Sequence record: PP434429
Reading direction: 5' to 3' (one strand)
Source of the DNA: Escherichia phage LH01
Length of the DNA: 64,000 bases
Part shown: positions 27,985 through 33,312 of the stretch, piece after piece
How positions within the stretch are numbered: the first letter of the stretch is position 1
Layout of the letters: every line of letters begins with the position of its first letter
Notes under the pieces: model-generated
Databases searched by the model: none
Told to the model about the DNA's origin: nothing
Seen by the model: the letters and a program-made list of their open reading frames with translations, nothing else
Made by a program: the position numbers and the translations under genes

Positions 27985-28041
27985 CTTATTTCCTTGTTGT
28001 TTGACGATAGATTAATAATACCACACTATTCGTAAAGCATA

Positions 28042-28350
28042 TTACATAAGAAGCAAACGTTCTACCGGAGTACCATCAACCGAAATTACTTTATCAAGGC
28101 GGAAAGAACGCCACTGGCCTAACTTGGTATCGAATGCTCGAACTGATTCACGAGGTTCATAACGAACTTCTGTTGCCGGATTGTTATTTTCATATTTGAC
28201 TTCAAGTTCATCGCGCGAAGCAAACATAGTGCGTACATCACCGTTAGCCTTTTCAAATACAACACAATGAACGCCTACAGACAGAATAGTTTTAATACGT
28301 TCACGAAGAACCATAGTTTCTCGTTCAGTTAAAATCATATTATTCACCAC
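28042..28350 (-). CDS. hypothetical protein (102 aa, 31.1-like position)
   Basis: ORF overlapping cd start. Confidence 0.5.
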   Translation of the reverse strand: MVNNMILTERETMVLRERIKTILSVGVHCVVFEKANGDVRTMFASRDELEVKYENNNPATEVRYEPRESVRAFDTKLGQWRSFRLDKVISVDGTPVERLLLM

Positions 28351-28921
28351 AAAAGTTTCGGATTTGTTCCCAATTCAGAGAACGAAGATTATTACGAGAG
28401 TACTGAATTACTTCAATACCAGCTTGTTTAAGAATGTCTGCCCAGTTTTCAGGAGATCTGTCGTATAATTCTGCGTATACGACCTTTTTAATACCTGACT
28501 GCGTAATAGCTTTAGTGCAATCAGGACATGGAGAAAGCGTCGTATATAACGTAGCACCTTCAATAGAATTACCTTTACGAGCGGCAAACAAAATTGCGTT
28601 CAATTCTGCATGGATTTCATTATTAGCAGACCATGCACTATGAGCAGCTCGATGTTCTTTGGCTAAAACAAAATTATCTACCCGTCCAAATGCTGTAGTG
28701 CCTTCTTTATGTCCAGCAACGATGACTGGGATTGGTTTATTCTTCAACCAACCATTTTCAGATGCATGTTCGCAACAGTTAACGCCACCTGCAGGTGAAC
28801 CGTTATATCCAGTAGAGATAATGCGTCCATCTTTTTCAATGACGGCACCAACTTTCCATGAACAACATTTTGATTCTTGAGAAATCAGATATGCAATCTG
28901 AAGGTATGTGCTAGCTTTCAT
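28340..28921 (-). CDS. cd: dCMP deaminase
   Basis: 193 aa; zinc-binding motifs HAELNAI and SPCPDCTKAI; size as T4 Cd. Confidence 0.92.
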   Translation of the reverse strand: MKASTYLQIAYLISQESKCCSWKVGAVIEKDGRIISTGYNGSPAGGVNCCEHASENGWLKNKPIPVIVAGHKEGTTAFGRVDNFVLAKEHRAAHSAWSANNEIHAELNAILFAARKGNSIEGATLYTTLSPCPDCTKAITQSGIKKVVYAELYDRSPENWADILKQAGIEVIQYSRNNLRSLNWEQIRNFCGE

Positions 28922-29913
28922 TATTGAACCTTATTAATATAAGTTAACAGCTCTTTAGTTTGTTCCCAACTGATGCACGCATCGGTAACGGAAACGCCAT
29001 AGGACATATTATCAGAAATTTTTTGATTTCCTTCATGTAGGAACGATTCTATCATAATTCCTTTGACCAAATCATTAGCTGCTAATTTTTTACCAATACC
29101 AATTTGATTGCTATAATGCCCATCAGCGTTTGCATGGCTACAGTCAACCATTACATAATGATTCAGACCTACTGCCCTTGCTTTGTTAGAAGCTTCTTGA
29201 ATATCAGAAGAATGATAGTTCGGGCCGTTGGTCCCGCCACGCAATACGATATGCGTATTCTGATTACCTTCAGCTTCAACAATGCCTACAGTACCATCGA
29301 CGTCCATACCCATATACCGATGAGGCCAGGCGGCACTATACATCGCGTCTGTAGCTACTTTAATAGAACCATTGGTTGCGTTCTTGAAGCCTACGCACAT
29401 CGGTAGACCTGAAGCAATTTCACGATGTGTCTGACTTTCAGTCGTACGTGCGCCAATAGCAACCCATGAGAAAATACCAGAAAGATACTTAATCGTGAAT
29501 GGGTCTAATACTTCAGTTGCTAATGGAAGTCCCATACGTAGAAGTTTACGACACAATGTTCGTGCAACTATAAGACCGTGGTTCATATCAAAACTTCCGT
29601 CAAGATATGGATCATTTACAAGACCTTTCCAACCTACGGTAGTTCGAGGCTTTTCAAAATAAACGCGCATCACTAACAGAACATTAGGAAGACGAGTTTG
29701 AAGTTCAGCCAGACGTTTGCCGTATTCAACAGCAGCAATAGGGTCATGAATTGAACAAGGACCTACAACAATAAGTTTGCGTGGGTCTTCACCGTTCATA
29801 ATCGAATTAACTTGTTCGCGATGAGAAGCCACTTGTGATGCGTAAGCTTCCGACAAAGGAATAATCTCAGCCAGTTCTTTTGGAGAAATAAGTTTTCCGA
29901 CGACAGGTAACAT
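28921..29913 (-). CDS. 3-deoxy-D-arabino-heptulosonate-7-phosphate (DAHP) synthase, class I (AroG/F/H-like)
   Basis: 330 aa; motifs VVGPCSIHD, RVYFEKPRTTVGWKGL, IGARTTESQTHRE, MVDCSHAN, ESFLHEGNQ, VTDACISW align with E. coli AroG; stop/start overlap with cd. Confidence 0.9.
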   Translation of the reverse strand: MLPVVGKLISPKELAEIIPLSEAYASQVASHREQVNSIMNGEDPRKLIVVGPCSIHDPIAAVEYGKRLAELQTRLPNVLLVMRVYFEKPRTTVGWKGLVNDPYLDGSFDMNHGLIVARTLCRKLLRMGLPLATEVLDPFTIKYLSGIFSWVAIGARTTESQTHREIASGLPMCVGFKNATNGSIKVATDAMYSAAWPHRYMGMDVDGTVGIVEAEGNQNTHIVLRGGTNGPNYHSSDIQEASNKARAVGLNHYVMVDCSHANADGHYSNQIGIGKKLAANDLVKGIMIESFLHEGNQKISDNMSYGVSVTDACISWEQTKELLTYINKVQ

Positions 29914-30033
29914 AACAATCCTTAGGAGATATAAACAGATTCTGATTCAACAATACCTTTAACCGGATTAGATAGGCTAAGTTGGTAGTGCTCAGATTTA
30001 TGACCATTCTCGATAGTAATGAGATAGCTCTCA

Positions 30034-30270
30034 TTATAGTGTTCCATATACTCGAGTTGCTTCAACAAGACCATCACTGCCTAATTTAAGATTAGTAATT
30101 TGGTCACCATCTTTAGGATTAACGATTATGAGAAAAGAACGTGGAGATTCTTGAATAACTCGTAATGTTGCATCCTGGAAACGTTCAGACACTTTATTGA
30201 TGAGTGCTTGAGCAAATTCTTTTACTTTAATCTGAAATTCGTGTACTGTAATTGGGTTTTCACTTAGCAT
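30034..30270 (-). CDS. hypothetical protein (78 aa)
   Basis: ORF with GAGGAAATAG RBS and GTTTAC-N18-TACTAT promoter. Confidence 0.45.
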   Translation of the reverse strand: MLSENPITVHEFQIKVKEFAQALINKVSERFQDATLRVIQESPRSFLIIVNPKDGDQITNLKLGSDGLVEATRVYGTL

Positions 30271-30298: not shown

Positions 30299-30328
30299 AT
30301 AGTATCACAACTCCACCATGTTGTAAAC
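30299..30328 (-). promoter_or_regulatory. early promoter GTTTAC-N18-TACTAT with inverted repeat
   Basis: Arms TGGTAGAGTT 30289-30298 and AACTCCACCA 30309-30318 (9/10) flank the -10. Confidence 0.5.
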
Positions 30329-31010: not shown

Positions 31011-32096
<1,086 letters not shown>

Positions 32097-32959: not shown

Positions 32960-33312
32960 TCTGAGAGCTTCCTGAGGTCTTCTGCAAAGGAATCGAAGGA
33001 CCTGTTGATTTGTTTTTCGACCAATCCTGGCTTACTTGCCACCACGTTCTTCTTCTTCGAATCCTGGCGGAGCTTTTCATTTTCAGCCTTAAGTTGGTCA
33101 ACTAAAACACGGTTCTTATAAGTCATTTCTTCGATTGACTGATATTGAACTTTGAAGTCGTCTAATACTTTAGCATTGTTTTTAGCAGCCTCTTTAACAG
33201 AAGCTAATTCAGTATTCAACGAATCAACTTTGTTGTTTAAGACAACTATTGTTACCGTAGAAACTAGAGCAAAAGCTGCTACTATAGCATAAATCGGATT
33301 TACTTTAAGCAT
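32956..33312 (-). CDS. i-spanin (inner-membrane, Rz equivalent)
   Basis: 118 aa; N-terminal TM segment IYAIVAAFALVSTVTIVVL followed by charged coiled-coil. Confidence 0.65.
   Translation of the reverse strand: MLKVNPIYAIVAAFALVSTVTIVVLNNKVDSLNTELASVKEAAKNNAKVLDDFKVQYQSIEEMTYKNRVLVDQLKAENEKLRQDSKKKNVVASKPGLVEKQINRSFDSFAEDLRKLSE

Follow-up and report, generated by a model that had tools for sequence, protein, structure and literature searches.

A DAHP synthase gene directly upstream of cd

We examined a 64,000-nucleotide (nt) stretch of the genome of Escherichia phage LH01 (sequence record PP434429; hereafter the window), which belongs to an RB69-like, T4-type Mosigvirus and over 5 kb is 99.6% identical to phage ATK47. 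Directly upstream of cd, the gene for dCMP deaminase, an open reading frame (ORF) on the minus strand encodes a 330-residue protein that is unambiguously a type I-alpha DAHP synthase (DAHP being 3-deoxy-D-arabinoheptulosonate 7-phosphate). Its family identity and fold, its intact catalytic residues, the purifying selection acting on it, the monophyly of its phage relatives and the remodelling of its inhibitor pocket are all direct observations, and we set these out before turning to what the enzyme might do for the phage. The gene and its translation start are defined by two features:

28921..29913, minus strand: DAHP synthase gene (3-deoxy-7-phosphoheptulonate synthase, type I-alpha, AroF-like), 330 amino acids, ATG start
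29919..29923, minus strand: Shine-Dalgarno sequence AAGGA of the DAHP synthase gene, 5 nt upstream of its ATG, as read from the sequence

The reading frame cannot exceed 330 residues, because an in-frame stop lies 11 codons upstream of the start and no ATG, GTG or TTG falls between the two. At its other end the frame closes with TAA (28923–28921, minus strand), the last A of which is also the first base of the cd ATG (28921–28919); the overlap with cd that an earlier note on this DNA had described is therefore real, and amounts to one shared base in a TAATG junction. All six of the sequence motifs quoted in that note are present (at residues 49, 83, 153, 255, 289 and 309). Its description of the gene as full-length holds only approximately, in that the phage protein is 18–26 residues shorter than its Escherichia coli counterparts (AroH, AroG and AroF have 348, 350 and 356 residues, respectively); alignment with these three enzymes places the difference in the first 8–10 residues, which are absent, in internal deletions of 5 and of 2–3 residues, and in a shorter C-terminus.

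Family, fold and active site

Profile searches assign the protein to PF00793 (Pfam; 252.5 bits against a cutoff of 25.5, E = 4.5e-75) and, among the NCBIfam models, to the TIGR00034 aroFGH equivalog (427.9 bits, cutoff 173.2) and NF009395 (454.8, cutoff 343). Both isozyme models that matched scored below their cutoffs (AroH, 385.5 bits against 463; AroG, 362.6 against 568), and there was no AroF-specific model among the matches. In the PDB, E. coli AroF ranks first (6agm, E = 6.8e-105); after it come the enzymes of Neisseria and Francisella, E. coli AroG and the yeast enzymes. An AlphaFold2 model of the phage protein (predicted local distance difference test score, pLDDT, of 91.3; predicted template modelling score, pTM, of 0.91) was compared by Foldseek with the DAHP synthases of N. 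meningitidis, F. tularensis and E. coli, giving template modelling (TM) scores of 0.94–0.96 and root-mean-square deviations of 1.5–1.8 Å. The (β/α)8 barrel of the model bears the decorations of the I-alpha class, namely N-terminal helices and an extra β-hairpin before β6 (strands 198–203 and 209–214). Taken together, PF00793, TIGR00034, the AroF match in the PDB and the AlphaFold model bear out the class I-alpha identity that had been proposed from motifs.

The roles of the residues that make up the metal, phosphoenolpyruvate (PEP) and erythrose-4-phosphate (E4P) sites are known from structures of AroG. Using these roles, which are also described in part in PMC9529685, we mapped 15 active-site residues in AroG numbering onto an alignment of 29 phage-clade and 98 cellular homologues. 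The codons of the four metal ligands (from the alignment to AroF, AroG and AroH) and of the loop that sets DAHP synthases apart from 3-deoxy-D-manno-octulosonate 8-phosphate (KDO8P) synthases are as follows:

29755..29757, minus strand: codon of metal ligand Cys53 (AroG C61)
29134–29136, minus strand: codon of metal ligand His260 (AroG H268)
29047–29049, minus strand: codon of metal ligand Glu289 (AroG E302)
28981–28983, minus strand: codon of metal ligand Asp311 (AroG D326)
29641..29652, minus strand: codons of K88-P-R-T91 (AroG K97–T100), the E4P/PEP loop, invariant in 29/29 phage-clade sequences

The AroG-type Cys, His, Glu and Asp ligands are thus present as C53, H260, E289 and D311, just as the earlier note had listed them, and Cys53 is invariant in all 29 phage and all 98 cellular homologues. 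The remaining eleven positions, which contact PEP or E4P (AroG R92, K97, P98, R99, T100, E143, G163, A164, R165, K186 and R234), are likewise kept, as R83, K88, P89, R90, T91, E134, G154, A155, R156, K177 and R225 of the phage protein. No metal ligand or PEP-binding residue has been lost from the phage enzyme (15/15 kept), and all 15 metal, PEP and E4P residues are invariant across the 29 phage-clade sequences. In comparison with five other phage genera, the ratio of nonsynonymous to synonymous substitution rates (dN/dS) is 0.15–0.23, with dS saturated; inside Mosigvirus the 9–10 differences over 990 nt are too few to be informative. Given the invariance of the 15 residues in all 29 sequences and these dN/dS values, it appears very unlikely that the phage protein is a pseudo-enzyme.

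A broader form of the same idea, in which the protein is either inactive or has turned to some other aldose-phosphate substrate in the manner of a KDO8P synthase (feeding lipopolysaccharide or a sugar modification of DNA), strikes us as highly improbable. Arabinosyl-hydroxymethylcytosine (arabinosyl-hmC) is known in Mosigvirus DNA, which would give such an enzyme a conceivable purpose, and RB69 is reportedly the phage in which this base was described. RB69 has no DAHP synthase gene and five other genera do have it, and on these grounds we rejected a link to arabinosyl-hmC. The domain has also been called lipopolysaccharide-biosynthesis related (PMC8022965); we rejected a role of this kind, or a KDO8P-synthase-like activity, on the strength of the KPRT motif and the TIGR00034 equivalog score (428 bits against 173). 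Every catalytic residue is invariant besides, and the long-term dN/dS argues against decay.

The inhibitor pocket is remodelled throughout the phage clade

Against this unaltered catalytic centre, the allosteric region differs from that of the cellular enzymes, beginning with the N-terminus, which starts 8–10 residues later in all 29 phage-clade proteins; the equivalents of AroG residues 1–8 (including D6 and D7) and of AroF N8 are absent from 29/29 sequences. In AroG, the N-terminal segment of the partner subunit reportedly helps to close the inhibitor pocket, a finding attributed to Shumilin et al. in 2002. A passage of PMC11843938 that draws on Jossek 2001 gives AroF N8K as a Tyr-insensitive mutant.

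Conservation across the alignment points to the same region. Of 122 columns that are at least 90% conserved across the 98 cellular relatives, the phage clade keeps the cellular residue in 100 and is fixed to another residue in only six, the changes being (in AroG numbering) P150I, Q151K, D155G, S180P, F209Y and T223A. The corresponding codons in the window are:

29488..29493, minus strand: codons of I141-K142 (AroG P150-Q151, AroF P151-Q152), clade-fixed substitutions in the inhibitor pocket
29476–29478, minus strand: codon of G146, clade-fixed change
29401–29403, minus strand: codon of P171, clade-fixed change
29314–29316, minus strand: codon of Y200, clade-fixed change
29272–29274, minus strand: codon of A214, clade-fixed change

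The inhibitor-site residues, given as their AroG equivalents, are M147, Q151, D155, L179, S180, F209, S211, 212 and 214, with Q151 and S180 touching the main chain of the inhibitor (PMC9529685). Feedback resistance in AroG has been obtained with D146N, M147I, P150L, L175D, L179A, S180F, A202T, F209A/S and V221A (PMC9529685), to which P148L and Q152I in AroF may be added (PMC11843938). Five of the six phage-specific changes fall at inhibitor-site or feedback-resistance positions (Fisher p = 3.5e-6, a somewhat optimistic value in that the list of sites was drawn up after the substitutions had been seen, which must be counted against the interpretation developed below).

Which allosteric residues survive in the phage enzyme, a question raised by the earlier note, can be answered residue by residue from the alignment to AroF, AroG and AroH. 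Among the Tyr-binding residues of AroF, the equivalents of P148 and G212 are kept, Q152 has become Lys, S181 Pro and F210 Tyr, the nearby P151 has become Ile, and residues 1–10 are absent; at the position of AroG S211 the phage protein carries a Gly, as do Tyr-type enzymes. Across a broader set of 127 sequences, each representing a cluster at 50% identity, the catalytic residues are nearly invariant whereas the pocket residues vary, and three or more of the six phage signature residues were found in none of the 127. Judged by these alignments, the phage pocket is clearly neither that of AroF nor that of AroG, and its composition most simply suggests that inhibition by aromatic amino acids has been lost. 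Escape from host feedback control, which the earlier note had offered as one option, is accordingly the option that the absent N-terminal segment and the clade-fixed pocket changes favor. We found no description of a clade-wide remodelling of the allosteric site in the literature searched, and our account of it is drawn from sequence.

An old phage lineage of DAHP synthases

Searching 50,697 phage records by tblastn, we obtained matches in 212, each covering at least 80% of the query and, in every one of the matches listed, as a single unbroken piece. The protein matches PHROG 5045 along its entire length (E = 4.2e-182; residues 1–330 on profile positions 8–337 of 341), a family named 'phospho-2-dehydro-3-deoxyheptonate aldolase' and filed under 'moron, auxiliary metabolic gene and host takeover'. 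The interval between pseT and cd also holds the gene in Marfavirus (Klebsiella), Bragavirus (Proteus), Winklervirus (Serratia), Kagamiyamavirus (E. coli EcS1) and Kanagawavirus (Enterobacter), and in these five genera it adjoins cd or stands one or two small ORFs away. The closest proteins in a collection of 5.8 billion are phage or phage-like (319–343 residues, 54–98% identical), and the nearest cellular proteins, from several phyla, are 51–55% identical.

A neighbour-joining tree of 127 sequences unites the 29 phage-type proteins as one clade in 100/100 bootstraps. The full tree also groups this clade with enterobacterial AroF, an arrangement that received 8/100 support in a reduced set. In base composition the gene resembles the neighboring phage genes (GC content 0.413, and 0.296 at third codon positions, GC3), with E. 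coli aroF at 0.518 and 0.504. Because the phage proteins are monophyletic, share about 50% identity with cellular enzymes, have a phage-like GC content and show dN/dS of 0.15–0.23, the sequences point to an old acquisition maintained under purifying selection. On the choice between host and phage origin, which the earlier note had left to phylogeny, a recent capture from the host is rejected, given 51% identity to AroF, 100/100 replicates that recover the phage clade, a GC3 of 0.30 against 0.50, and 8/100 support for AroF as sister group.

These data bear directly on the proposal that the gene is a recently captured host aroF, still sensitive to Tyr and carried as a neutral passenger (a moron) that merely adds enzyme dosage. 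Many GenBank records do label the gene 'aroF, Tyr-sensitive', AroF is the best PDB match, and the Tyr-type Gly occupies the position of AroG S211; to these must be opposed the modest identity to E. coli AroF and the difference in GC3, the tree, the replacement of the Tyr-binding residues Q152 and S181 together with the loss of the N8 region, and scores against the NCBIfam models of the AroG equivalog and AroH subfamily that fall short of the cutoffs. Phylogeny and pocket changes between them largely refute this proposal, and we accord it hardly any probability.

Some records in the phage collection appear to be bacterial DNA, which slightly inflates the number of 'phage' DAHP synthases. The distant matches in 'Acinetobacter phage MD-2021a' are probably host DNA, and some 'phage' records that carry aroF and aroB at bacterial identity are 240-kb contigs or Salmonella whole-genome contigs. 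A tblastn search of the phage records for AroB gave 16 matches, none of them in Straboviridae, the matches being bacterial-looking sequence filed as phage and several of them evidently contigs from bacteria.

Genomic setting and the RB69 gap

On the minus strand the genes run in the order pseT, cd.4, an ORF, cd.3, cd.2, a 41-residue ORF, DAHP synthase, cd, 31.1, gene 31 and rIII. This order, together with the TAATG overlap, upholds the coupling to cd within the early pseT–cd region that the earlier note had noticed. The immediate neighbors, and a pair of repeats to which we return below, are:

28340..28921, minus strand: cd (dCMP deaminase), 193 amino acids (PF00383, 1.6e-26; same annotation in ATK47, RB69 and T4)
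29922..30047, minus strand: 41-residue ORF, MEHYNESYLITIENGHKSEHYQLSLSNPVKGIVESESVYIS, between cd.2 and the DAHP synthase gene (phrog_15876, 1.9e-32)
30034..30270, minus strand: cd.2 homologue (DUF7320), upstream neighbor (PF24005, 1.5e-35; phrog_1504, 1e-37)
30021..30037, minus strand: left copy of a direct repeat (17 nt, imperfect), ATAATGAGAGCTATCTC, bordering a 1,113-bp segment
28908..28924, minus strand: right copy of the repeat, ATAATGAAAGCTAGCAC, over the DAHP synthase stop and cd start (14/17 matches)

T4 itself lacks a DAHP synthase gene, as the earlier note had supposed, and carries in that slot, directly upstream of cd, the unrelated cd.1 (a 112-residue hypothetical protein). RB69 has nothing there, cd.2 abutting cd. 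Comparison of the window with RB69 (by blastn and alignment) identifies the difference as an extra 1,113-bp segment holding the 41-residue ORF and the DAHP synthase gene. The 'TAATGA' stop/start junction lies within the 17-nt repeat, which occurs just once in RB69, where cd.2 meets cd; this arrangement fits a loss or gain through recombination between short repeats. Since most Mosigvirus-type records with cd carry the gene (approximately 139 with a DAHP synthase of at least 95% identity, against 150 with a near-full-length match to cd) and other genera have it in the same interval, loss in RB69 would be the simpler reading.

Several smaller observations concern the genes around this segment. 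The 41-residue ORF, inside the segment absent from RB69, overlaps the end of cd.2 and terminates on the ribosome-binding site of the DAHP synthase gene; it is annotated in phages JK45 and PNJ-6 but not in ATK47. It gives a weak profile match to the C-terminal half of the Cd.2 family (phrog_1504, 1.8e-05), and BLASTP against the window's own Cd.2 returned no alignment. In JK45 and PNJ-6, compared over window positions 28624–30213, identity to the window is 99.0–99.3% across the DAHP synthase gene with its 300 upstream nt and 92–95% across the first 300 nt of cd. Such a sharp step in diversity at the gene boundary could reflect mosaic recombination, or else a sweep that recently carried the cd.2–DAHP synthase block through Mosigvirus. 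The cd gene of RB69 is annotated as 510 nt (169 residues), against 582 nt (193 residues) in the window and in T4; the nucleotide match to RB69 spans the whole 582 nt (RB69 133667–134251), and the shorter annotation may reflect a frameshift or early stop. Downstream of cd, the 31.1 homologue (28042–28350, minus strand) matches a WYL_2 / Sm-like SH3 β-barrel (PF10902, 3.7e-09), and its label in ATK47, 'tail fibers protein', looks like a mis-annotation.

The company the gene keeps raises the question of whether the enzyme, though active, might serve as a metabolic sink rather than as a source of aromatic compounds, either by draining E4P, so that the non-oxidative branch of the pentose-phosphate pathway is drawn to make ribose-5-phosphate for nucleotide synthesis, or by draining PEP and so disturbing sugar uptake by the host. 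Such a role would fit a place among nucleotide-metabolism genes: at most two small ORFs separate the gene from cd in six phage genera, the window adds translational coupling between the two, and no downstream gene of the shikimate pathway is phage-encoded. Yet the pseT–cd interval is a variable slot that elsewhere holds unrelated small ORFs (cd.1 in T4) or nothing (RB69), for which reason position is weak evidence of a functional link, and the stoichiometric argument is a theoretical one. We regard a sink of either kind as improbable.

Expression signals

A promoter candidate lies upstream of the gene, in the gap between cd.3 and cd.2:

30299..30327, minus strand: sigma-70-type promoter-like site (TTTACA, 17 nt, TG-TACTAT), from a consensus scan

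The T4 record places the early promoter Pe133295 at the same position, and a scan of the minus strand from pseT to cd found no terminator-like sites. Motifs resembling the MotA box (TGCTTNA, 11–13 nt, TANNNT) occur on the minus strand at 28015–28039, 31293–31317 and 33286–33311, one just upstream of gene 31 and one within pseT, upstream of the block from the cd.x genes through DAHP synthase to cd; over the entire window such motifs show a strong strand bias, 11 being on the minus strand against 1 on the plus. From this arrangement, the DAHP synthase gene is most likely co-transcribed with cd in the early or middle period.

Proposed role: a deregulated valve at the entry of the host shikimate pathway

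From the foregoing we infer activity of the enzyme, its insensitivity to feedback, the timing of its expression and a benefit to the phage, and with moderate confidence we favor the reading that an active, early-expressed and feedback-insensitive enzyme provides a deregulated entry valve into the shikimate pathway of the host. The gene would be transcribed early, with cd.2 and cd, from a promoter at the position of T4 Pe133295, and its catalytically competent, metal-dependent product would condense PEP and E4P to DAHP and phosphate. Relative to AroF, AroG and AroH of the host, the active site is untouched and the allosteric site rebuilt; with the N-terminal lid over the partner subunit's pocket gone, and the main-chain and ring contacts to the inhibitor replaced clade-wide, Tyr, Phe and Trp would probably be unable to shut the enzyme off. 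Carbon would then keep entering the host shikimate pathway after the phage has stopped host gene expression, with the remaining steps performed by host AroB through AroC, and the products (aromatic amino acids and possibly other chorismate-derived compounds) would be available for virion production. Since the AroB search gave no genuine phage homologue, the phage supplies only the regulated control step.

Several considerations weigh against this valve. RB69, T4 and most T4-like phages do without the gene, which is therefore dispensable. The promoter-like site is a consensus match, and the promoter and terminator scans gave counts no higher than in shuffled sequence, leaving the transcription unit to be inferred mainly from the T4 annotation. 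The literature that we found on phage DAHP synthase consists of annotation-level mentions, with no biochemical, genetic or omics study among it. Pocket positions vary naturally within the family (among the 127 cluster representatives, Q151 is present in 67, S180 in 78, with Pro in 22, and F209 in 97, with Tyr in 13), and hence a changed pocket need not equal an unregulated enzyme. Moreover, the new pocket residues are fixed in 28–29 of the 29 sequences, a level of conservation reached by just 40% of the columns in the clade, and such strictness accords no less well with a working pocket than with a dead one.

This last point opens onto a different view of the pocket, in which the enzyme is active and re-regulated rather than deregulated, the remodelled site serving as an allosteric site for some other effector (perhaps a nucleotide, a protein made by the phage, or an anionic ligand along the lines of chorismate or prephenate). 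I141, K142, G146, P171, Y200, G202 and A214 are fixed in 28–29/29 sequences despite divergence within the clade down to 53% identity; the loss of acidic N-terminal residues, combined with the exchange of Gln for Lys, reverses the charge of the pocket; and across the family the pocket residues vary with effector type. On the other side of the balance, the sequence indicates no candidate ligand, the conserved residues also lie in the dimer interface, where structural constraint alone could have fixed them, and there is no characterized precedent, 0 representatives in the broad sample carrying at least three of the six residues. We consider re-regulation unlikely. A more specific version we judge to be unlikely as well: the Straboviridae enzymes could be an ancient, fixed allosteric variant, with Lys, Pro, Ile, Tyr, Gly and Ala at the six positions and no acidic N-terminal lid, conserved rather than merely broken and retuned to an effector other than an aromatic amino acid or to a protein partner from phage or host. 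Were the pocket retuned in this way, the phage would possess a programmable valve of its own on the aromatic or pentose-phosphate metabolism of the host.

The presence and identity of the gene are already known, from GenBank/RefSeq annotation since at least 2012 (HX01) and from PHROG 5045, and it is annotated in more than 200 phage genomes; ATK47 encodes an identical protein (YP_010088308.1, 100%, labeled phospho-2-dehydro-3-deoxyheptonate aldolase). ORF 64 of phiC120 is an earlier mention of the gene (PMC8022965), and in Kanagawavirus KLB31 it was treated as an auxiliary metabolic gene and an aromatic amino-acid hypothesis was offered (PMC11845039). As the find of a genome scan it is therefore ordinary, the identical protein being annotated and the family already filed as auxiliary metabolic. 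Its interest lies in the fact that many enterobacterial T4-type phages carry exactly one enzyme of the shikimate pathway, that of the regulated entry step, with no downstream enzyme beside it. Should the enzyme indeed be insensitive to Tyr, Phe and Trp, the deregulated valve would clearly illustrate how a phage can defeat feedback in its host instead of enlarging the capacity of the pathway, and evolution would have produced a feedback-resistant DAHP synthase that metabolic engineers might find useful.

Comparison with known DAHP synthases

The closest relative of solved structure, the Tyr-sensitive AroF of E. coli (PDB 6AGM/6AGL), is 51% identical to the phage protein and has the same type I-alpha fold and the full set of metal, PEP and E4P residues; the two also agree in having Gly where Phe/Tyr selectivity is set (AroG S211) and Pro at the place of AroF P148. 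Unlike the phage protein, AroF has residues 1–10 (including N8), and its P151, Q152, D156, S181 and F210 are replaced in the phage enzyme by I, K, G, P and Y; relative to AroF, the phage protein has 5-residue and 3-residue deletions and a C-terminus that is 9 residues shorter. With the Phe-sensitive AroG of E. coli (PDB 1KFL/1QR7) it has in common the catalytic machinery, 47% identity and a TM score of 0.95 to the model.

Engineered feedback-resistant forms of AroG (P150L, variants of Q151, S180F and F209A/S; PMC9529685) are altered at the same positions as the phage enzyme, although they carry other amino acids than the I, K, P and Y of the phage, which are natural and fixed in the clade. The Straboviridae members of PHROG 5045 (ATK47, HX01, PhAPEC2, JK45, Klebsiella Marfavirus, Serratia X20, Proteus PM2 and EcS1) occupy the same pseT–cd locus and do not differ materially from the gene in the window.

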